From assembly GCF_055900595.2 (NCBI RefSeq), contig NZ_CM148325.1: 64,000 bases of DNA, one strand, 5' to 3'. Positions 952 through 53,126 of this stretch are shown one piece after another. How positions within the stretch are numbered: position 1 is the stretch's first letter; the number at the start of each line of letters is the position of its first letter. Below the pieces are notes generated by a model. That model was given only the letters and a program-made list of their open reading frames with translations. It did no database searches and was not told the DNA's origin. Made by a program: the position numbers and the translations under genes.

Positions 952-1251
952 TTAACCAGTCTGTTTCCCTGATTGGGGTGACGTTGTTTCGACGTGCCCA
1001 CAGTGTGCGAGAGCCGGGGCTATTTGCCCGTGTTCTGGGTCGATGCGGTCATACATAAACCAATTCTGATACTTATGAAAACGGGGGTGACCAAATATCT
1101 TAATTGCAGATTCCAATGTCATCTTAGATTTGTCACGCTCATAGCCGTGATAGGTTGTGTAATTAAGCCCTACTAAATCAACAAATTGCTGTTTTGTTAG
1201 CCTTTCCGAATCTCGCATGATCGCTAACTTTTCACCTTGAGTATTTGACAT
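952..1251 (-). CDS. C: Immunity repressor, P2 C-like (99 aa)
   Basis: It has the same length as P2 C and is collinear with it as recalled (MSNT..EK..MR.SE.L..QQ..., C-terminal QIAPALAH.G..ETTSP.SG..TG). It lies next to int and is divergent from the cox-like ORF. Confidence 0.85.
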   Translation of the reverse strand: MSNTQGEKLAIMRDSERLTKQQFVDLVGLNYTTYHGYERDKSKMTLESAIKIFGHPRFHKYQNWFMYDRIDPEHGQIAPALAHCGHVETTSPQSGKQTG

Positions 1252-3515: not shown

Positions 3516-4001
3516 TTAGCGGGAAGCGCCAACCGTAAGGCTGGCAATGATTTTTTCGGAGAGTGAGAGAGATTCGCGATGATTAAGACCAAGAGCAGCA
3601 CAAGCTTTATTGCGCGCCGGGTTGTCCATGCATTCAAGCACCGGAGAGTCCTGCTTCTCAATTTCCACCAGTCGCGCCAGCAACACCTCCGTGCTGAGAC
3701 CGTCGCTTTCAGTAATCAGGACGTTATAGCGATGAGCCTGTTCTTTTGCAGCCTGAGCGCGTCGCCCAAATTTCCAGGCGATATTGCAGCCACTAAGCAC
3801 AGCCACGATACCACCCAGCAACCAACTGAAATTGCTGTCTGCAAACACAGTAGCCCCAGACGTAAGGATGACAGCATTAATCACCGTATCCATACGGCGG
3901 TTAAACACCTCCGAAATATGTTCAAGCCAGTAACTGTTCCAGAGACGAAACATGACCTCGTGTCGCCGTTCGGCATGATTTTCAGTTGGTTGTCTGTTCA
4001 T
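3516..4001 (-). CDS. Two-TM membrane protein, SLATT-like (161 aa); opposite-strand moron
   Basis: An N-terminal helix is followed by two adjacent hydrophobic helices (VINAVILTSGATVFA, FSWLLGGIVAVLSGCNIAW). Then comes WKFGRRAQAAKEQAHRYNVL, the layout I associate with SLATT 2TM effector domains. GAGGAGGG SD. Antisense to the early operon. Confidence 0.55.
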   Translation of the reverse strand: MNRQPTENHAERRHEVMFRLWNSYWLEHISEVFNRRMDTVINAVILTSGATVFADSNFSWLLGGIVAVLSGCNIAWKFGRRAQAAKEQAHRYNVLITESDGLSTEVLLARLVEIEKQDSPVLECMDNPARNKACAALGLNHRESLSLSEKIIASLTVGASR

Positions 4002-4799: not shown

Positions 4800-4919
4800 G
4801 CAATCACCATGTACACACAAAAAAACCGCTTGCAACAACAAACCGGAACAGGGTACGCTTCCCCCGCACCTCATAAAACGGGTGTCGGGTTTCGCAGCCT
4901 GCTGACTAGCAAAGCGCAC

Positions 4920-4940
4920 AACCGCGCCAGCGGTTTTTTT
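4920..4940 (+). terminator. Intrinsic terminator inside the leader of the replication operon
   Basis: AACCGC-GCCA-GCGGTT stem-loop followed by a U-run (7 T in total). Its 3' half and U-tract are also part of a 15-bp long-range pairing with 4816-4830. Confidence 0.55.
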
Positions 4941-4981
4941 GTGCGTACTGTATTGCCACGTCTTTTTCGCACACGAATTAT

Positions 4982-5062
4982 GGCGGGGCGTACGGGGCCG
5001 ACTTCGGTCGGGCCGGGTTCTTTGCTAGCCGGTACTGCGAACCTCGTACGTCTCGCCACCCA
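4982..5062 (+). ncRNA. C4 (P1/P7) / CI (P4)-type antisense RNA candidate, tRNA-like
   Basis: A 13-bp closing helix pairs 4982-4994 with 5045-5057 (11 Watson-Crick and 2 G-U pairs), followed by ACCCA. It encloses a C(UUCG)G hairpin (4995-5014) and a second hairpin (5016-5043). The second hairpin carries CUUUGCUAG (5020-5028) and CUGCGAA (5035-5041), which are complementary to sites on both sides of the RNA. Confidence 0.55.
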
Positions 5063-5119
5063 CAGTTTCGCAGCTCTGGATGGTGAGTTTTTAAAACTTA
5101 CTAGCAAAGAGGCCACACC

Positions 5120-5338
5120 ATGGCAAACCGCAAACAGCGCCGCGCTACTGCGGAGCATCACCACGTCCGCGCCCAAATCGACAAACGCCTTTTCCGCGCA
5201 TCACGCGTTGCACGCATCATGCACATCAACATGCTGCATGAACGCAGAGGGGCACTACCGAACACCTATATCGCCTCCGTTTTCAGCTATCTGGCGGACG
5301 ATCTCGCCGAGCTGCAACACCTCATTAACCAGCACTGA
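5120..5338 (+). CDS. Small basic protein (72 aa), in the position Icd holds downstream of c4 in P1
   Basis: The AAGAGG SD (5107-5112) lies inside the predicted antisense target a2 (5101-5110). The ORF is in a different frame from, and overlaps, the implausible 201-aa track ORF. Confidence 0.5.
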   Translation: MANRKQRRATAEHHHVRAQIDKRLFRASRVARIMHINMLHERRGALPNTYIASVFSYLADDLAELQHLINQH

Positions 5339-5410
5339 TAAACATCCCGAAGCCATCCTGCGCCCGTTCGCGGGAGGCTTCCACACATCTGTAGTCGGGA
5401 GGATTGCGCC

Positions 5411-5779
5411 ATGATTCTGGCTGACGATTTTCTGGAGTACCTGAACAACACCGAGCGCGACCTGTACGCGCGCGTTCTCACCCGTTACGAGAAATACAAA
5501 CTTTCACTGCCAGAGCATCAACTCCGCGAAGGCGATATCGACATTGAAGGGCGCTACATCGTCAGGCGCCGCATAGCGGGCTACGGCATCTGGCGTGTCA
5601 CCGGACTTGAGCATTCATTGCTGACCATCTGCCAGAGTCCGTCCGGCGTGATAACGGAGATCGTCGCCGATAGTCTGCGACTCACCCATCACAGCGCCAC
5701 CCCGGAAGAAACGCTGGCAGAAACCCAGCGTCTGTGTCGCGTCATTGCCAACGCCGCCCTCCGCGCAGACAGGAGGTAA
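5411..5779 (+). CDS. Hypothetical early protein (122 aa)
   Basis: GGGAGG SD; immediately precedes gpA. Confidence 0.5.
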   Translation: MILADDFLEYLNNTERDLYARVLTRYEKYKLSLPEHQLREGDIDIEGRYIVRRRIAGYGIWRVTGLEHSLLTICQSPSGVITEIVADSLRLTHHSATPEETLAETQRLCRVIANAALRADRR

Positions 5780-5782
5780 GCG

Positions 5783-8272
5783 ATGGAGTTCGTCAGAGAC
5801 TGGCAAAAACCGCGCCCCGCTATCGGGCGCGAAGGCTTACCCGTACCTGAAACCGCACTGGATACCATCCTGAAGTGTTACCGCGCAGACGAAGAGCGCG
5901 CACTGCACGCTGAAGAGCAGGGTCATCCGCTTGCGGGCACAACCATCGGTAACGCGATCGACAAGTGGGAAGGCGCACAGGAGCGCCAGGAAGAGGCCAT
6001 CACGCTCACACAGGAAGCGAGAAGACACCCGCCCACCCTTATTGAGGAAACCCTCAAAGAGCTGGACACCCTGCCCAAGTGGTTGAGGCTGCCGCTGATT
6101 AAGCACCTGAACTTTTTAAGGCGCAAACAGGAGGACGAACAACAGAAAGGCAAGCGCGGCAAGGACACCCGCAAATATGAGCGCTTCCTGAAAAACGGCA
6201 TCCCCGCACGTCTTCGCCGTATTCGTGAGATTAACGCTCGCTTTGCACCGTTAAGTTTTCAGGCCGCTGCCATGCGCGAGAGTCTGGAAGAACTGATCAC
6301 ACTGCCGAACCTGAGCCGTGAACGCATCCAGAAAATAGCCGTACTGCTTGCCAGCGCCGTTAAAATGCATCTTGCCGACGCAATGGACAAGGCCCGCGAA
6401 ATAACAGGGAACGACAAAGACGACAACCTGAACAACTGGCTGATTGCCTACCAGTATATTGGTCGCCGTGTCCTGAAGCTGGGGATCACCCCACCATACT
6501 GGAGCGCCCTTGAACTCCGCCCCGACCGCAGAAGCCCCCCGGACGTGACACTGGTTCCGGGCGCTGTTTTGCGCCTGAACGACGCCGAATGGTGGAATAA
6601 AAAACTTCGCCAGATGCACGACGTCTGGCGTGAGGAACTTTTACGTGCAGCGGGCCTTGTATCCCGCCAGACCTCCGTTTATGTGAGCCGTGAAGCGCTG
6701 GCAGACTTCCGCGAAAAACAGGCCCGTACCCGCGATTTTCTCAAAGCGCACGACGTGGAGAACGAAGACGGCGAACGCATCAGTCTGGAAGATATCTACT
6801 ACGCCAGTACATCCAACCCGCATAACCGCCGCAACGAGATGATGGCGTGCGTTAAGGGAATGGAGCTTATCGCACAGGAACGCGGCGACGTGGCCTTCTT
6901 CGTCACGGTCACAGCCCCGTCTCGTTTTCACAGCGTCACCGACGCAGGCACGCTGAACCCGAAATACAAAGGCGCAACCGTAAAGGACGCCAGCGACTAT
7001 CTGGTTTATAACTTCTTCGCCTCCGCCCGCAAACTCATCAAAAAAGAGAAGCGGGGCTGGTACGGCATTCGCACCGTGGAGCCTCACCACGACGGCACGC
7101 CCCACTGGCACATGCTGGTATTCACAAGCCCTGAGAACGAAGAGCGCATCACGGAAATCATGTGCAATGCCGCCATTCGCGAAGACCGGGCAGAGCTGGG
7201 CGACGACATCACCCCGCGCTTCAAGTGCGAGAAGATAGATCCCGAAAAAGGCACGCCAACCAGCTACATCGCCACCTACATAGGCAAAGGCATTGACGCC
7301 GCTGCATTCGGCGACACGGATCCAAAAACAGGTAAACCGCCCGTTGACCACGAAAGCGGAAAACCTATGGCGGACACCGTGGAAAACGCCGTCGCCTGGG
7401 CGCGCCTGCATCGCATTCGCCAGTTCCAGTTCTTTGGCCTCCCTTCCCGTCAGGTGTGGCGTGAGTTCCGCCGCCTTGCCGGACAAATGGCACGCAACCC
7501 GAAGGGGCCGCAGGCACTGACCAACCCCAAAGCCGACGCCCTCCTTGTTGCAGCCGATACGGGGTGTTTTGCCAGCTACATCATGCATCAGGGCGGTGTG
7601 CTCATTCCCCGTAGTGAATATCTGGCCCGCACAGCCTACGTCACCGCAGAAGAGCCGAACAATTACAGCGAATTCCCCGAGCGCATTTACGGTATCCGCA
7701 TGCCGGAACTGGGGGAGGACTTCACGTTATGCACCCACCCGGAAGAGTGGAAAATCGTCAGAAAGGAACCGGAACCAGACAACCGCACGGGCGAGGGTTT
7801 TGACCTTCAGGGCGGCCCCGCCGCCCCTTGGACTCGTGGCAATAACTGTCACCCTGACGAAAAAACAACCAACAACAGCACACAAACAGAACAGTCAGAG
7901 TGGGCAAAACTGCCCCCCTTACCCCCATCGTCGGACGGTTTTGTGAGCTGGTTTAAGTCGCTTAAGAGGCCGGACAGGAAAAAACTACAAAGATTGCTCA
8001 AAAAACGCACCGAAGAGAGTCGCCAGAACGCCAGCGGCGGCACCGACACACCCACCGACACCATTAACCTGGGCGTTGTGCTGCCGGAACTGCCGGAAAT
8101 CGTGCAAGTCCGCCGCGATCTGGAAGCGCTGGGCGCGGACTTCCCCGAAGCAATGGCCCATTCCGTCTTTATGGGTGCCCGCGTTCGTCTGGGTGACGGT
8201 CGCACCGTTCACCGCGACGAGCAGACCGGGCGCATCACCGTCACCAGTCTGCAACCGGAGGCGAAACCATGA
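5783..8272 (+). CDS. A: Rolling-circle replication initiator endonuclease, P2 gpA family (829 aa)
   Basis: HUH-type metal motif EPHHDGTPHWHMLVF and tyrosine motif TSYIATYIGK. Same position and size class as P2 A. Confidence 0.9.
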   Translation: MEFVRDWQKPRPAIGREGLPVPETALDTILKCYRADEERALHAEEQGHPLAGTTIGNAIDKWEGAQERQEEAITLTQEARRHPPTLIEETLKELDTLPKWLRLPLIKHLNFLRRKQEDEQQKGKRGKDTRKYERFLKNGIPARLRRIREINARFAPLSFQAAAMRESLEELITLPNLSRERIQKIAVLLASAVKMHLADAMDKAREITGNDKDDNLNNWLIAYQYIGRRVLKLGITPPYWSALELRPDRRSPPDVTLVPGAVLRLNDAEWWNKKLRQMHDVWREELLRAAGLVSRQTSVYVSREALADFREKQARTRDFLKAHDVENEDGERISLEDIYYASTSNPHNRRNEMMACVKGMELIAQERGDVAFFVTVTAPSRFHSVTDAGTLNPKYKGATVKDASDYLVYNFFASARKLIKKEKRGWYGIRTVEPHHDGTPHWHMLVFTSPENEERITEIMCNAAIREDRAELGDDITPRFKCEKIDPEKGTPTSYIATYIGKGIDAAAFGDTDPKTGKPPVDHESGKPMADTVENAVAWARLHRIRQFQFFGLPSRQVWREFRRLAGQMARNPKGPQALTNPKADALLVAADTGCFASYIMHQGGVLIPRSEYLARTAYVTAEEPNNYSEFPERIYGIRMPELGEDFTLCTHPEEWKIVRKEPEPDNRTGEGFDLQGGPAAPWTRGNNCHPDEKTTNNSTQTEQSEWAKLPPLPPSSDGFVSWFKSLKRPDRKKLQRLLKKRTEESRQNASGGTDTPTDTINLGVVLPELPEIVQVRRDLEALGADFPEAMAHSVFMGARVRLGDGRTVHRDEQTGRITVTSLQPEAKP

Positions 8273-8679
8273 ACCGTTATCATTGTGTACTGCCGCGCCA
8301 CTACTTCGGTCAGATTATGCGCTCGCGTATTCCGGCGGTCACGCTGCGAAACCTGAGCACGGTACCGCAGCCGGGCGATGAGCTGGAAATCGCCGTAGCA
8401 GGCCCTGACCGTTCAGCCAGCTGCGTGACCGCCGACGTGCTGAACGCCGTGCCCGTAGGTGGTGACTGGCTGGTTGCCATCCGCTTCCGCCAAGACCCGT
8501 TCGCACCTGAACCGCTCACCCCCGCAGGCCGCATCATGCAGAACTGGCGGGATGAACGCGCGAAGGCGAACTGCGAAAAACTGATTAACAGGATTGCCAC
8601 GACAAACCGACATGCCGCGCTGGCGCGCCGGATATACCCCGCAAAATCAACACAACCAACAGGAGTAAAAGGCCCATGA
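8269..8679 (+). CDS. Hypothetical protein (136 aa), possibly with an ASCH/DUF3850-like PUA fold
   Basis: ATGA overlap with the A stop. The N-terminus HCVLPRHYFGQIMRSRIPAVTLRN....PGDELEI resembles the ASCH-type pattern. This is a weak, by-eye call. Confidence 0.45.
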   Translation: MNRYHCVLPRHYFGQIMRSRIPAVTLRNLSTVPQPGDELEIAVAGPDRSASCVTADVLNAVPVGGDWLVAIRFRQDPFAPEPLTPAGRIMQNWRDERAKANCEKLINRIATTNRHAALARRIYPAKSTQPTGVKGP

Positions 8680-8822
8680 AAAGAATCGCCGGAACTGACT
8701 ACCAGGAGCTGCTTAAAGCGGTGGAAAACTACCGTTCAGCGCTGGTGTGGTGTGAGATTAAGCCCTGTGACCCGGGAGCAGTTAAGGATTGCAACCGGCG
8801 CGTGAGGACATTCAGCGCGTAA
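8676..8822 (+). CDS. Small hypothetical protein (48 aa, MKRIAGTDYQELLKAVENYRSALVWCEIKPC...)
   Basis: ATGA overlap with the upstream ORF. Below the track cut-off. Confidence 0.35.
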   Translation: MKRIAGTDYQELLKAVENYRSALVWCEIKPCDPGAVKDCNRRVRTFSA

Positions 8823-8937
8823 TTGGCTACCGCTATGTAGCAGCCATTATTGACCTTGTGAATGAACTGGAGGAAGCAAAAGAGCGCATCGCAGAACTGG
8901 AAACCCAGAATAACCCCAACCAGCAGGAGCAGAAGCC

Positions 8938-9519
8938 ATGAAAAAAAGAGACCTTAAAAAACACCTCCGTAGTCAGATTGAATATTTTGAAGATAAGGCT
9001 GCAAAAACAGGGCTTTCCGGTAAAGAGAACATGAACTTCAGGGCACACCTCCTGACGTGGAGAATACTTAATATCACGAGAGATGGACTTGAGCCGCTAG
9101 CCTACCTGATGGAAGATGGCGAGACCCTCATACAGGATCCCAATGTGGAAATGGAGAAGAAAGAGATGGACCTGCCGATAATCGGGCTGTTTGAGATCCC
9201 TGAACTAATAGGACGTTATGAACACGAAAACCGCCAGCTTGCCGCCTTTTTATCCGTGACAATCGAACGACTGGAAACCGTGAAACACGATATTCCGTTC
9301 GGTTTTGATGAGCGCACCGAGGGTGATTTGCTCAGCTTTCAGATTGCCCTGAACGTGCTCACCGCAGAGCCTTCTGCGTGGCTACGCCCGGAACGGCACC
9401 ACAACACGTTCGCATTTACCGTAATTCCCTACGATGCCGCACAGGAAGAGGATAACTTCGAGACCAGGCTTGTTCCCCTGTATCAGATTGCGGATTTCTA
9501 TACGTTGATTCGCTGGTAA
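8938..9519 (+). CDS. Hypothetical cargo protein (193 aa), no recognisable domain
   Basis: AGGAG SD, visibly AT-rich codon usage compared with its neighbours, and a strong terminator after it. Confidence 0.55.
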   Translation: MKKRDLKKHLRSQIEYFEDKAAKTGLSGKENMNFRAHLLTWRILNITRDGLEPLAYLMEDGETLIQDPNVEMEKKEMDLPIIGLFEIPELIGRYEHENRQLAAFLSVTIERLETVKHDIPFGFDERTEGDLLSFQIALNVLTAEPSAWLRPERHHNTFAFTVIPYDAAQEEDNFETRLVPLYQIADFYTLIRW

Positions 9520-9534
9520 TCCCCCACAGTAAAA

Positions 9535-9557
9535 CAGCCCGACCGGGCTGTTTTTTT
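9535..9557 (+). terminator. Intrinsic terminator
   Basis: CAGCCC-GACC-GGGCTG followed by TTTTTTT. Confidence 0.7.
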
Positions 9558-9614
9558 ATCTGATATTTTTGATAACGTTGACCGGCTCATTAGCAAAAAA
9601 GCAAAGAGGAAAAC

Positions 9615-10013: not shown

Positions 10014-10040
10014 ACAGCCCCGTTCGGGGCTGTTATTTAT
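10014..10040. terminator. Bidirectional hairpin terminator between convergent genes
   Basis: ACAGCCCC-GTTC-GGGGCTGT with T-rich flanks on both strands. Confidence 0.6.
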
Positions 10041-10411
10041 TCCAGAATCAGCTGTTCAGGTGTGCAGCCGTACAGTCTGGCAAGGCGCTCAATATTTGCC
10101 CTGCGCGGGCGTTCTGTTCTTTCGAATTCGGACACGGTAGCCTGCCTGATACCCAGCGCATCCGCCACCTGCTTTTGCGTCATTCCGCGATAGATTCGCC
10201 ACGCCGCCTGCATGGTGCAGCCACGTTCCGAGAGGATGTTGACCACCTCGTTGGGATACAGCGTATCAGGCGATGCACTCGGTTCGTTCTGGACGTCCTC
10301 GTAGAGTTCGTCAAGGTCGCTGTCTCCTGCCAGTTTTTCAAACAACGCCACTGGCAGAATGACGGATACCCTGTTACCCGCACCGTCAGTAATAAACTGA
10401 ATCTGACTCAT
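10037..10411 (-). CDS. Antitoxin: N-terminal Phd/YefM-like segment plus C-terminal Xre-type HTH (124 aa)
   Basis: The C-terminal MTQKQVADALGIRQATVSEFERTERPRRANIERLARLYG is an Xre HTH. It lies downstream of a RelE/ParE toxin gene (HigBA-like order). AGGAGGGG SD. Confidence 0.75.
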   Translation of the reverse strand: MSQIQFITDGAGNRVSVILPVALFEKLAGDSDLDELYEDVQNEPSASPDTLYPNEVVNILSERGCTMQAAWRIYRGMTQKQVADALGIRQATVSEFERTERPRRANIERLARLYGCTPEQLILE

Positions 10412-10451
10412 TTGCCCCTCCTGCTAAACATCGGTTTATTTTTTAATTTGC

Positions 10452-10484
10452 TGCCGGTGATAAAAAACGGCGGGTCGCCCCGCC
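10452..10484 (-). terminator. Strong intrinsic terminator between the toxin and antitoxin genes
   Basis: On the minus strand, directly after the toxin stop: GGCGGG-GCGA-CCCGCC followed by GTTTTTT. Confidence 0.6.
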
Positions 10485-10751
10485 TTAGTATGTTGTCGAG
10501 GTTCTCCGCTGAATACGGAGGATCCTGATAACCACTATCTGCCCTCCCTCAATCGTGAACCTGACACGGTAATGATTTACCCTGAGTCTGTACTCCCCGC
10601 CCGAGTCAGTGAGCTTTTTAATATCCAGATTCTGGAACTTCGGATAGCCATAAAGCGCGTTAACTTTCTCGCGTAAGGATTTCTGATCCCTCGCTGGCAA
10701 AACCCGTAAATCTTTGATTGCCCGAGGGGTCCACATGATTTCAGTCGTCAT
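10485..10751 (-). CDS. RelE/ParE-family toxin (88 aa from the ATG at 10751; the track start at 10757 is GTG)
   Basis: The sequence ..WTPRAIKDLRVLPARDQKSLREKVNAL...YRLRVNHYRVRFTIEGGQIVVIRILRIQRR has the typical RelE/ParE fold signature (YR.RVG.YR..F...). Confidence 0.8.
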   Translation of the reverse strand: MTTEIMWTPRAIKDLRVLPARDQKSLREKVNALYGYPKFQNLDIKKLTDSGGEYRLRVNHYRVRFTIEGGQIVVIRILRIQRRTSTTY

Positions 10752-10802
10752 AAACACACCGGAAGCAAATTATTAAAGAGCCGTGCCCGCTGGCACACCT
10801 TA

Positions 10803-37165: not shown

Positions 37166-37960
37166 ATGGATCTGTTGTACCGGGTAAAAACGCTTTGGGC
37201 CGCGCTGTGCGGTAATCATTACACCTGGCCTGCTATCGATATCTCTCTTCCCGACCATCGCCATTTTCATCTAATCGGCAGTATTCATATGGGTAGCCAC
37301 GATATGGCTCCCCTGCCCACCCGTTTGCTCAAAAAGCTCAAAAACGCCGATGCGCTGATCGTCGAGGCGGATGTTTCTACCAGCGATACGCCTTTTGCCA
37401 ATTTGCCTGCCTGCGAGGCGCTGGAAGAGCGCATTAGCGAGGAGCAACTCCAAAACCTGCAGCACATTAGCCAGGAGATGGGCATTTCTCCGTCGCTCTT
37501 TTCTACCCAACCGCTGTGGCAAATCGCGATGGTTCTTCAGGCAACGCAAGCGCAAAAACTGGGGCTGCGGGCAGAATATGGTATCGATTACCAGCTATTG
37601 CAGGTGGCGAAGCAACAACATAAACCCGTGATTGAACTGGAAGGGGCAGAAAACCAGATTGCCATGTTGCTCCAGCTCCCTGACAAAGGACTGGCGCTGC
37701 TGGACGATACGCTGACCCACTGGCACACCAACGCTCGTTTGCTGCAACAAATGATGAGTTGGTGGCTGAATGCACCACCGCAAAATAATGAAATAACGCT
37801 GCCCAATACGTTCAGTCAGTCGCTGTACGATGTGTTGATGCATCAGCGAAATCTCGCCTGGCGGGACAAATTACGCGCTATGCCGCCGGGGCGCTATGTG
37901 GTCGCGGTCGGTGCACTACACCTGTATGGAGAAGGGAATTTGCCACAAATGTTGCGCTAA
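37166..37960 (+). CDS. ybaP: TraB/GumN-family protein
   Basis: 264 aa. Synteny between copA and chiX/ybaK as in E. coli. Confidence 0.8.
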   Translation: MDLLYRVKTLWAALCGNHYTWPAIDISLPDHRHFHLIGSIHMGSHDMAPLPTRLLKKLKNADALIVEADVSTSDTPFANLPACEALEERISEEQLQNLQHISQEMGISPSLFSTQPLWQIAMVLQATQAQKLGLRAEYGIDYQLLQVAKQQHKPVIELEGAENQIAMLLQLPDKGLALLDDTLTHWHTNARLLQQMMSWWLNAPPQNNEITLPNTFSQSLYDVLMHQRNLAWRDKLRAMPPGRYVVAVGALHLYGEGNLPQMLR

Positions 37961-38042
37961 AAAAATGGCCAATATCGCTATTGGCCCGTCAAAGAGGAAT
38001 TTCATTTTTTTATTATTATGCCGTCACTTTAAGCGACGGTGT
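37959..38042 (-). ncRNA. chiX: ChiX (MicM/SroB) Hfq-dependent sRNA
   Basis: The reverse complement reads ACACCGTCGCTTAAAGTGACGGCATAATAATAAAAAAATGAAATTCCTCTTTGACGGGCCAATAGCGATATTGGCCATTTTTTT. This matches my memory of the 84-nt ChiX sequence and its ybaK-ybaP location. Confidence 0.85.
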
Positions 38043-51194: not shown

Positions 51195-53126
51195 TCAAAT
51201 GGGGCGGATACTTTCTTCATCCAGCTCCGCATCGAAGAATCGACGCAGGGTCTGAATATTATTATCCGCAATAATGGACTCGCGCGCCTGCGCAAGTTTT
51301 TCTTCGTATATCGCCTGACGCCATTCCAGCGGCGTGCGCACCGCGGGATTATCATCTTCAACGATAGTCAGTTCAACCGTTGAACCTTTTAACGTGCTCA
51401 ACGCTTCAGCCAGTTTTTGCTGTGCACCGCGGTTGTTTAAATGCCGCTGAGAGGAGCGCAAATGCAGACATACTGCGTTGTCGCTCTCCTCTTTCCAAGC
51501 ATTTAACGCCACCTGTTCGACCAGTTTTGGTAGCGAAAGTTGGCTCACCTGTGCCGCCCAAGGATCGCGGTCAATGGCTTCTGCCGCCAGCTTTGCCGCC
51601 AGTTCCGGCGTTTTTTCATGTTCCAGCGCTTTTTTCAGCGCCTTCGGCGTGGCGACCACCTCTTTTTGCTGCATCACTGGAGTGGTAGCCTTCCAGCGAT
51701 ACGCTTCTTTTTTGGCTGGTGCTTTTTCCAGCGCCGATGGCCCCGGACGCGCCTGAACGCGATCGGTGACCGAAGCCAGTCTTTCCAGCGCAGCGTTATT
51801 CACCGGCCGCGCGCGGGTAGCGGCTGCCGGTTCACTCTTTTTTGCTTTGGTTGCTCCCTGTGCGCGCTGCAGTTGTTGGCGCGCTGCCAGCACCTGGCTG
51901 GTGGTTTCTGAGAGCGGTACAGTCGGTGCCTGCTGCGGTGCTGATTGCGGTTGCGGCGGCACCTGGGTTGGCGTCATTACTGCCGTTGGCGCGACGGGCG
52001 CAAAAGACTGGCGTGGCACTTCTGGCTCAGGCAGCGGCATACGCGGATGAAACGCCAGTGCGCGCAACAGTGTCATCTCAACGCCCATGCGGCGGTCCGG
52101 CGCATACGGTAATTCTTTGCGACCAATCAACAGCGTTTGATAGTAAAGCTGAATATCCGTCGGCGGTATGGTGCGCGCCAGTTCACGCATCCGCAGCTCG
52201 ATGGCGGCCATGTCGTTGCCCAGCGCAGCAGGGGAAAGTTGCACCATTGCAATGCGGTGCAACAGGCCGAGCATTTCTACCAGCAACGCTTCCCACTCAA
52301 TACCACGAGCGGCGGCTTCATTAATCAGCGACATTACACGCTCGCCGTTGGCTTCAACCATCGCTTCAACCAGCGACAGCGCCTGATCGTCGTCAAGCGT
52401 ACCCAGCATCGCACTGACCGCCTGGGTTGAAACCTGGCCGTCACCGCTGGCAATTGCCTGGTCGGTTAAACTTAGGGCATCTCGCAAGCTGCCTTCAGCG
52501 GCGCGCGCCAGCAGTTGCAGCGCCCGCGGCTCGTGAGCGATATGTTCTTCGTTGAGGATGTGCTCAAGCTGATGGCGAATTTGCTCGACATCCAGCGCCT
52601 TGAGATGAAATTGCAGGCAGCGTGACAAAATCGTCACCGGCAATTTCTGCGGATCGGTCGTCGCCAGCAGAAACTTGACGTGCTCCGGCGGTTCTTCAAG
52701 GGTTTTTAACAGTGCGTTAAAGCTGTGGCGCGACAGCATATGCACTTCGTCGATCAGATAAACTTTAAAACGACCACGCGCTGGCGCGTACTGGACGTTA
52801 TCCAGCAGGTCGCGGGTATCTTCGACTTTGGTGCGCGAGGCGGCGTCGATTTCAATCAGATCGACAAAGCGCCCCTGCTCAATTTCACGACAGTTATCGC
52901 ACACGCCGCACGGCGTCGCGGTAATGCCGGTTTCGCAGTTTAGCCCCTTCGCCAGCAGTCGGGCGATAGAGGTTTTTCCGACGCCACGGGTGCCGGAAAA
53001 AAGATAAGCATGATGAATACGCCCTAACGACAAGCCGTTCGCCAGTGCGGTCAGCACATGTTCCTGGCCGACGACGTCAGCAAAGGTTTGTGGGCGCCAT
53101 TTTCGGGCTAAGACCTGATAACTCAT
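51195..53126 (-). CDS. dnaX: DNA polymerase III tau subunit (gamma by frameshift)
   Basis: 643 aa, Walker A GTRGVGKTS, zinc module, recognised sequence. Confidence 0.97.
   Translation of the reverse strand: MSYQVLARKWRPQTFADVVGQEHVLTALANGLSLGRIHHAYLFSGTRGVGKTSIARLLAKGLNCETGITATPCGVCDNCREIEQGRFVDLIEIDAASRTKVEDTRDLLDNVQYAPARGRFKVYLIDEVHMLSRHSFNALLKTLEEPPEHVKFLLATTDPQKLPVTILSRCLQFHLKALDVEQIRHQLEHILNEEHIAHEPRALQLLARAAEGSLRDALSLTDQAIASGDGQVSTQAVSAMLGTLDDDQALSLVEAMVEANGERVMSLINEAAARGIEWEALLVEMLGLLHRIAMVQLSPAALGNDMAAIELRMRELARTIPPTDIQLYYQTLLIGRKELPYAPDRRMGVEMTLLRALAFHPRMPLPEPEVPRQSFAPVAPTAVMTPTQVPPQPQSAPQQAPTVPLSETTSQVLAARQQLQRAQGATKAKKSEPAAATRARPVNNAALERLASVTDRVQARPGPSALEKAPAKKEAYRWKATTPVMQQKEVVATPKALKKALEHEKTPELAAKLAAEAIDRDPWAAQVSQLSLPKLVEQVALNAWKEESDNAVCLHLRSSQRHLNNRGAQQKLAEALSTLKGSTVELTIVEDDNPAVRTPLEWRQAIYEEKLAQARESIIADNNIQTLRRFFDAELDEESIRPI
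51837..51843 (-). other. dnaX -1 programmed frameshift site (A AAA AAG)
   Basis: The minus strand reads GCA AAA AAG AGT GAA. After a -1 slip it reads GAG TGA, giving gamma. A GC-rich stem (CCGGCAGCCGCTACCCGCGCGCGGCCGG) follows. Textbook recoding site. Confidence 0.9.

Follow-up and report, generated by a model that had tools for sequence, protein, structure and literature searches.

A C4/CI-type antisense RNA module upstream of an epsilon-like gene and the replication initiator gene of a P88-like prophage

The 64,000 nucleotides (nt) analysed here (contig NZ_CM148325.1 of RefSeq assembly GCF_055900595.2; hereafter the window) belong to an Escherichia coli chromosome and carry a P88-like prophage (Xuanwuvirus) of the P2 family, with a P2-type C repressor and a P2-type replication protein, gpA. 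Upstream of gpA lies a compact module of two structured RNAs, a leader of the IsrK/seqA type and a C4/CI-type antisense RNA. It is followed by the genes orf72, orf122 and gpA and is crossed by a 201-codon open reading frame (ORF) that starts ahead of both RNAs (Table 1). An earlier reading of the bare sequence, the first-pass annotation, had proposed for this place an antisense RNA switch of the kind known from phages P1/P7 and P4. Its interpretation proves essentially right, although several of its particulars need correction.

Table 1. Coordinates of the module, its flanking genes and the repressor gene in the window, with the phage P1 immI features that align to them
Feature	Position	Strand	Basis or remark	Aligned P1 feature
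C immunity repressor	952–1251	-	99 amino acids (aa); 52% identical to P2 C, E = 8e-36	
Long ORF, 201 codons, eta-like	4809–5414	+	ATG 4809, upstream of the internal promoter; ends ATGA on the orf122 start	
5′ arm of the 15-bp helix, CACAAAAAAACCGCT	4816–4830	+	contains AACCGC, a copy of the terminator 5′ arm; codons 3–8 of the long ORF; abuts the −35 hexamer	
Predicted sigma-70 promoter of the leader/C4 transcript	4830–4859	+	TTGCAA (4830–4835), 18 nt, TACGCT (4854–4859)	promoter P1c4 (former P51b)
IsrK/seqA/c4-a1b1-type leader	4866–4940	+	Rfam RF01394, 63.2 bits vs threshold 50, full model	
Target a1	4891–4897	+	7 nt, perfect complement of block a′	a1
Target b1	4906–4914	+	9 nt, perfect complement within block b′	b1 (about 4906–4914)
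3′ arm of the 15-bp helix	4929–4943	+	overlaps terminator 3′ arm and U tract	
C4/CI-type antisense RNA	4976–5063	+	Rfam RF01695, 82.8 bits vs threshold 45, E = 9e-15, model 1–87 of 87	
Mature C4-like RNA (predicted)	about 4982–5060	+	79 nt, by mapping of P1 c4	77-nt c4 RNA (4982–5060)
Block b′, UCUUUGCUAG	5019–5028	+		
Block a′, CUGCGAA	5035–5041	+		
Hairpin showing a2 in its loop	5052–5087, U run to 5092	+	91% paired; 5 pairs changed on both sides	
Target a2	5067–5073	+	7 nt, perfect complement of block a′	a2
Target b2	5101–5110	+	10 nt, perfect complement of block b′; overlaps the orf72 Shine–Dalgarno sequence AAGAGG (5107–5112), read from sequence	b2
orf72, homologue of the P4 epsilon derepression (anti-repressor) protein	5120–5338	+	Pfam and BLASTP	icd ATG, on the orf72 ATG (5120)
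orf122, phrog_3237	5411–5779	+	start overlaps the long-ORF stop (ATGA); stop 3 nt before the gpA ATG	
gpA, P2-type rolling-circle replication initiator, 829 aa	5783–8272	+	Pfam Phage_GPA (PF05840) and identity to P2 A	

Both RNAs are found by a scan of the whole window against Rfam at the curated thresholds, which the C4 (RF01695) and isrK (RF01394) models exceed by 13–38 bits. The matches lie at the places and on the strand predicted by the first-pass annotation, and all twelve of the segments that it had quoted are exact in the sequence. The same two models match phage P4, at its CI RNA and at seqA. Use of the C4 and isrK models to detect relatives of CI and seqA has been reported (PMC10111431), and Weinberg et al. 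(2010; PMC2864571) described a c4 motif together with a 'c4-a1b1' motif upstream of c4.

The antisense RNA has the architecture of its family: a long closing stem surrounds a tetraloop hairpin and a second hairpin that carries one antisense block in its loop, and a second, single-stranded block follows 3′. The Rfam alignment and the minimum-free-energy fold agree on a closing stem, P1, of 17 bp (4981–4997 with 5042–5058). The stem of 13 bp read earlier at 4982–4994/5045–5057 is present, with 11 Watson–Crick and 2 G–U pairs and ACCCA (5058–5062) next to it, but the real stem is longer. The two hairpins noticed inside it correspond to P2 (4998–5011), which reads CCGAC(UUCG)GUCGG, and P3 (5012–5033). 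The fold has a free energy of −47.6 kcal/mol (z = −4.35). A 3′ ...GCCACC tail is present.

The leader upstream follows the order of its own family. It consists of two hairpins (4866–4885 and 4886–4901), the second of which presents target a1 in its loop, then target b1, and then an intrinsic terminator that was also located by an independent terminator scan (4920–4940; stem 4920–4925 with 4930–4935, followed by U7). The related model RF03163 (c4-a1b1) is not listed for the window at its threshold and is listed for some other loci. Transcription of the leader and the C4-type RNA is predicted from the sequence to start at about 4866, from a promoter whose position aligns with the annotated P1 promoter and with −35/−10-like hexamers upstream of P4 seqA; in homologues this promoter reads TTGCCA-18-TACATT. 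A second candidate promoter just 5′ of the C4-type RNA (TTGCCA-17-AATTAT, 4953–4981, plus strand) was rejected: its start would fall within stem P1, its −35 reads TCGCCA in most homologues, and 0.7 such matches are expected by chance.

The antisense blocks and their duplicated targets tie the two RNAs together. Both blocks read as the first-pass annotation had given them, both have perfect complements upstream and downstream, and the downstream copy of one lies on the ribosome-binding site of orf72. Only the labels had to be exchanged: in phage P1 the target in the hairpin loop is 'a' and the target on the ribosome-binding site 'b', a usage that we follow and that the annotation had reversed. 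Counted together with its complement, the 9-mer CTAGCAAAG has three occurrences in the 64 kb, each of them within the module, where 0.26 are expected and none of 100 shuffles reaches three.

From all fetched module-bearing loci, 91 distinct modules of 337 nt were taken, and 89 of them were aligned. The scaffold is nearly invariant, with 15 compensatory pairs in its helices. The three C4 helices are paired in 99.9–100% of cases, and compensatory changes fall in P1 (seven pairs) and P2 (four pairs). The blocks vary far more, with 14 variants of one, 22 of the other and 37 combinations, and their targets vary with them. Blocks and upstream targets are paired in 99.6% of cells, 14 of the 16 pairs being compensatory, and the covariation between them (0.678, against 0.136 in shuffles) is matched by none of 500 shuffles. 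For the downstream targets 96.5% of cells are paired, with compensatory changes at 14 of 17 pairs; when, as a control on either set of targets, the 3′ partner is slid by 1–3 columns, pairing falls to 25–50%. The covariation check suggested in the first-pass annotation is thus strongly positive, both in the helices of the scaffold and in the pairing of the blocks with either copy of their targets. Joint variation of the blocks with both copies of their targets is the signature of a specificity (immunity) determinant. The block types also keep no company with particular repressors. Among the 76 loci that have both a C gene and a module, 26 types of C repressor (at 90% identity) reassort freely with 23 C4 block types, as expected of two independent immunity determinants, and the two blocks reassort with each other as well.

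The first-pass annotation had further held that the 320 bp ahead of orf72 do not code plausibly. This part fails, for the 201-codon ORF starts upstream of the predicted immunity promoter, runs without a stop through the leader, the terminator, the C4-type RNA, the targets and all of orf72 (which lies in another frame), and abuts the next gene. Among 100 distinct loci, 99 keep it open, and in most it ends in ATGA, the other two frames across the region having 1–5 stops in numbers that vary between loci; in shuffled sequence the frame stays open with P = 0.016. Within orf72, all 74 unique sequences have an open +1 frame (P = 0.089 in codon shuffles), and the +2 frame has 1–5 stops. Even where orf72 is only 34–37% identical, the long ORF keeps its 200–206 codons and its ATGA end. 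In about half of the loci the stop of the upstream gene lies 9–11 nt before the long-ORF ATG or overlaps it. In P4 the equivalent is a 214-codon ORF (8168–8812) that spans seqA and CI and abuts epsilon.

An ORF so well conserved raises the question whether the locus is simply a protein-coding gene, a 201-aa 'Ash family' ORF of which the RNA matches are by-products. Conservation of the open frame and weak Pfam and PHROG matches speak for such a gene. Protein constraint cannot produce the three-way compensatory covariation of short blocks or the compensatory changes in the stems, the Rfam thresholds are passed by a clear margin, and the P4 'cI' region matched by the Ash model itself contains the CI RNA gene (PMC10111431). 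The covariation excludes that the locus is just a protein gene, and we regard this explanation as very improbable. The Ash model matches the N-terminus of the mEp460 Rha protein in addition to the P4 'cI' coding sequence.

The first gene behind the targets, orf72, is related to the anti-repressor of P4. It scores 26.9 bits (E = 4e-6) against the derepression protein family PF25738, whose threshold is 27.0, and BLASTP aligns it to P4 epsilon with 30% identity over 66 aa (E = 1e-8); PF25738 is present in nearly all of its homologues, which go by the name derepression protein. The epsilon protein of P4, an anti-repressor, binds P2 C (PMC2995052). No similarity was found between orf72 and P1 Icd. 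A comparison of orf122 with the P4 ORF151 protein likewise found nothing. The third gene encodes a P2-type gpA, with 341.7 bits against PF05840 (threshold 31.4, E = 4.9e-102) and 32% identity to P2 A over 618 aa (E = 9e-76). The claim that the RNA gates the rolling-circle initiator therefore needs rewording: gpA is what it was taken for, but the first target is the anti-repressor-like orf72, and gpA, two genes downstream, could be reached only indirectly. Since orf72 is epsilon-type, the immediate target of the RNA is an anti-repressor-like gene, like P1 ant and Gifsy-1 anrP. The long ORF also contains a GC-rich hairpin (GAAGCC...GGCUUC, ~5349–5381, plus strand) past the stop of orf72 and ahead of the start of orf122; no U run follows it.

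Taken together, the sequence makes it probable that the module is an RNA immunity switch of the P1 immI/P4 type, in which orf72 would stay untranslated in the lysogen, orf122 and gpA would be silent by polarity, the leader copies of the targets would serve as competitor or co-target, and translation of the long ORF would be the lytic bypass. In a lysogen, the promoter inside the long ORF would be active and most transcripts would end at the leader terminator (4940), yielding an IsrK-like RNA of ~75 nt. Read-through would supply a C4-like RNA of ~79 nt, excised by RNase P as in P1 and P4. Pairing of this RNA with a2 and b2 would block translation of orf72 and silence orf122 and gpA through polarity or termination, while a1 and b1 in the leader, as competitor or co-target, would set a threshold. 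If made, orf72 would inactivate the C repressor in the way that P4 epsilon inactivates P2 C. In that case the module would act as an additional immunity determinant whose specificity resides in RNA, as with immI of P1. Two members of the family, IsrK and STnc1160, are transcribed at a high level in Gifsy-1 lysogens under each of the 17 conditions examined (PMC7067206).

In the lytic cycle, RNA initiated at the early promoter upstream would include the start of the long ORF, so that ribosomes could cross the terminator and the C4-type RNA and couple into orf122 and gpA, as for P4 eta. According to PMC10111431, P4 eta is translated only when transcription begins at an upstream promoter, and its translation prevents immunity-specific termination, and the database record of phage 186 notes that gene A requires translational coupling to an upstream ORF. 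By analogy with these cases, we infer an eta-like bypass by which ribosomes on early-promoter transcripts may pass the RNA block.

The pairing could also be put to a different use. As in P4, the C4-like RNA might be mainly a termination factor that pairs with a1/b1 and a2/b2 on the nascent RNA, occlusion of the ribosome-binding site being secondary; the sites of termination would be the leader terminator, the hairpin with its U run at 5052–5092, or both. That hairpin is a candidate for a conditional terminator between the C4-type RNA and orf72, judging from its sequence. Its lower stem (CUCGCCA/UGGUGAG) is followed by five U, and the 3′ strand of C4 stem P1 doubles as its 5′ arm, which makes the two folds mutually exclusive; overlaps of this kind are noted in the supplement of Weinberg et al. 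(2010). A role in termination would fit the position of both targets next to terminator-like structures and the order RNA, epsilon, ORF, replication protein, which is that of P4, where termination dependent on CI, seqA and seqC is described in passages of PMC10111431 and PMC4825925. We nevertheless think it unlikely to be the main output. Target b2 sits on the orf72 Shine–Dalgarno sequence exactly as in P1 and at equal spacing to the ATG, the hairpin has only 4–5 U and an interrupted stem, and nothing in the sequence requires termination.

A further alternative starts from the leader. In the manner of Gifsy-1 IsrK, the short leader RNA might act in trans as an anti-antisense RNA that titrates the C4-like RNA or refolds the read-through mRNA, switching orf72 on and leading to induction. 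The leader does match isrK above threshold, the near-complete complementarity of a1/b1 to the C4-type RNA fits a decoy under selection, and an anti-antisense mechanism has been demonstrated for isrK-orf45-anrP (PMC4825925). The same pairing is expected, however, if a1 and b1 are co-targets for termination, as in P4, and we consider the trans-acting role doubtful.

Several points weigh against the immunity switch as we have drawn it. The sequence is compatible with all three outputs: a translational block as in P1, premature termination as in P4, and trans-activation by the leader RNA as for Gifsy-1 IsrK. The phage already has a C/Cox-type switch region, so that the need for a second layer is an assumption. 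The anti-repressor activity of orf72 and its target are deduced from the 30% identity to P4 epsilon, with a Pfam score 0.1 bit short of membership. Taken alone, the leader folds no better than shuffles (z = 0.12), a result that is uninformative, and the window's copy of the promoter (TTGCAA-18-TACGCT) fails a consensus scan, its −10 matching at 3 of 6 positions. The long ORF has no significant BLASTP similarity to the eta-type ORF of P4, and its match to Phage_ASH (PF10554; 21.7 bits, threshold 26) falls below membership and probably reflects conserved RNA sequence. Finally, the 89 modules are closely related, so that open frames and invariant helices are partly inherited and not independently selected.

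A further element of the module is a 15-bp helix between the arm at the start of the long ORF and the leader terminator. The first-pass annotation had proposed it as one half of a terminator/antiterminator pair. The helix is indeed a perfect 15 bp and overlaps the 3′ arm and U tract of the terminator, but its 5′ arm lies upstream of the predicted start at ~4866, is for that reason absent from the immunity-promoter transcript, and cannot act there. The helix dominates the minimum-free-energy fold of 4805–4950 (z = −4.6). Its 5′ arm is present in all P2-like modules and absent from P4, mEp460 and P4-like modules, in which the best complementary runs are 5–8 nt. Apart from compensatory changes at two pairs in 6–8 sequences, all in one group of modules, it is invariant. 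The arm might serve as an antiterminator restricted to transcripts that begin at the upstream promoter, as a lock under which the long ORF is translated only when coupled to the gene before it, as a site for RNase III, or as nothing more than an UP-like A tract. A function of the arm as a minus-strand terminator was rejected on reading the sequence, there being no stable GC-rich stem before the T run and no conservation of the flank.

The last of the possible roles would leave the helix without any function in RNA: the A7 tract would be an UP-like promoter element, and the arm would be complementary to the terminator by coincidence or as a leftover of recombination. The arm lies directly next to the −35 hexamer, with its A tract at about −48 to −42 as read from the sequence. 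Covariation in the helix is weak, at two pairs changed on both sides in those 6–8 sequences, and an antiterminator competing for the 3′ arm would presumably be at a kinetic disadvantage. Against this stand eight specific bases that are complementary beyond the A/U run, the group of modules changed on both sides (CACGUAC... with ...ACGUG), the dominance of the helix in the fold, and the presence of the arm in every P2-like module and in no other context examined. A helix without a role in RNA seems to us rather improbable.

The module is the norm among P88-like phages and not a rarity. The module of the window is 100% identical to that of E. coli strain CM2, and P88, phiSM, P884B11 and other Xuanwuvirus P2-like phages are 85–90% identical to the region. 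Modules of lambdoid Stx and mEp460 phages, located upstream of or within Rha/anti-repressor genes, are ~70% identical. A comparison with 5426 complete E. coli genomes found 80% or more of the module in 1161 of them (~21%). Homologous loci were collected by several routes: a single-sequence orf72 query against viral contigs and an alignment run against one genome per species gave three loci each, and an exact-pattern scan of viral contigs with the leader terminator region gave more than 120 stretches. At module-bearing loci orf72 is present in 124 of 128, and gpA in 103 of the 106 with enough downstream sequence. The RNA gene is unannotated in RefSeq here and in the phage records inspected, some of which have a spurious 'hypothetical' or 'ash family' coding sequence over it. 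The first-pass annotation had named no such RNA logic for P2 or 186, and scans bear this out for these type phages: neither the C4 nor the isrK model finds a match in the P2 early region with the cut-off relaxed to E ≤ 1, or anywhere in the 186 genome at gathering thresholds.

The viral contig IMGVR_UViG_2806310672_000003 (2351–5108, minus strand) carries four tandem isrK-C4 modules at a spacing of ~850 nt, which lack the 15-nt arm. Both modules of this array whose downstream sequence was read precede a gene starting MAT(I/T)(P/L)TQ, like the ORF after P4 seqC. It is unusual for a single element to hold four RNA immunity cassettes in a row.

Elsewhere in the window's prophage, the C repressor has Tyr at the position of Thr67 in P2 C (the sos site). 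Just upstream of the 184-aa DNA-binding ORF, the rightward early genes are broken by a 161-aa ORF on the minus strand (3516–4001; 'hypothetical protein' in RefSeq), which looks like an inserted accessory gene. Past the replication genes (~10037–10757, minus strand) lies a pair consisting of a helix-turn-helix protein and a RelE-family toxin; the names are those that RefSeq gives in the prophage of CM2, which is nearly identical. A segment downstream of gpA (~8700–9600) differs between the window and CM2, with gene coordinates offset by 428 nt, which suggests mosaic exchange between otherwise near-identical prophages. The Rfam scan also returned two ordinary chromosomal features, the DnaX ribosomal frameshift element (51798–51862, minus strand, 94.6 bits) and the small RNA sroB (37959–38042, minus strand, 82.1 bits), by which the flank is recognized as enterobacterial chromosome.

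The RNA families, the logic of their targets and the idea of a nested ORF are already published, and a default Rfam scan finds both RNAs. We found no description of the module in P2-like phages in the literature, and the P88 and phiSM papers do not mention it. The nesting of epsilon in the long ORF, the coupling to gpA, the arm helix and the extent of specificity diversity appear to be undescribed. A more far-reaching statement, which we offer tentatively and would sooner bet against than for, is that P88/Xuanwuvirus helper-type phages carry the whole immunity-derepression cassette of P4 (promoter, seqA-like leader, CI-like RNA, eta-like ORF and epsilon) in rebuilt form: epsilon would be nested out of frame in the ORF, an ATGA junction would couple the ORF to orf122-gpA, and the new 15-bp helix, by tying the ORF start to the leader terminator, would let the RNA tell early-promoter from immunity-promoter transcripts. 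If this is true, cassette and C repressor would form a two-part immunity like that of P1, in which at least 37 RNA specificities reassort freely with the 26 repressor types.

P2 is the textbook case of a non-inducible phage with a simple protein switch. A widespread branch of its family appears to have a further layer, in which an RNA sets the specificity of control over an epsilon-type anti-repressor and, through it, over the replication initiator. P88 is inducible by mitomycin C, and phiSM is spontaneously active (P88 and phiSM papers). The finding extends a known system and does not reveal a new one. Its use lies in the natural, freely reassorting specificity types, which are ready-made compensatory mutants for studying target choice by C4-type RNAs and the evolution of heteroimmunity, and in the bearing of a common cassette on the evolutionary traffic between P2-like helpers and P4-like satellites.

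Four systems invite comparison. Phage 186, which belongs to the same family as the prophage, also uses an anti-repressor for induction, and according to its record annotation the expression of its gene A depends on translation of an upstream ORF (orf84) and on bypass of internal terminators. It does so without a C4 or isrK RNA, and its anti-repressor, Tum, is LexA-controlled at p95 and encoded at the opposite end of the early region. The isrK-orf45-anrP locus of Salmonella prophage Gifsy-1, with STnc1160, shares an isrK-family leader that ends at an intrinsic terminator, a processed stable RNA derived from read-through (predicted in the window), a downstream anti-repressor, and alternative long-range pairings between the leader and a downstream segment (PMC4825925). 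Gifsy-1 is, however, a lambdoid phage whose different anti-repressor is reached through a 45-codon ORF, and its described output is AntQ-mediated toxicity, with no replication gene downstream.

The immI region of P1/P7 (P1c4/P2c4, a1 b1, c4, a2 b2, icd, ant1/2) is matched in layout. Its annotated features in P1 map onto the window in order and with nearly identical spacing, down to the end of b2 9–10 nt before the ATG. A C4-family RNA has its second target on the ribosome-binding site of a first ORF of ~72–73 codons in both, an anti-repressor function lies downstream and adds a second immunity determinant to a protein repressor (in the window putatively), and in P1, too, lytic replication genes (kilA-repL) stand behind the operon. 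The window differs in that orf72 is itself epsilon-type and anti-repressor-like, not a leader ORF for a large Ant. No C1-type operator is evident, and the IsrK-like leader ended by a terminator, the long ORF spanning the module and the 15-nt upstream arm have no P1 counterpart. The phage that hosts the module is P2-like.

In gene content, the immunity region of P4 (PLE, seqA, CI RNA, seqC, nested kil/eta, epsilon, orf151, alpha) resembles the module in other respects. Both Rfam models match it, an ORF of 201–214 codons begins upstream of the immunity promoter and spans the RNAs, and in the left operon the RNA module is followed by an epsilon homologue, an ORF of unknown function and a replication protein. 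Translation from an upstream promoter would in both cases be the route past the RNA block, as passages of PMC10111431 suggest for P4. The replication proteins are of different kinds, gpA being a rolling-circle nickase and P4 alpha a primase-helicase. Epsilon, which follows the long ORF in P4, is nested in it out of frame in the window, the first ORF after the targets is epsilon-like in the window and kil in P4, the long ORFs lack significant protein similarity, and the 15-nt arm is absent from P4. The element described here, in contrast to P4, is a full helper-type phage with a C repressor of its own.

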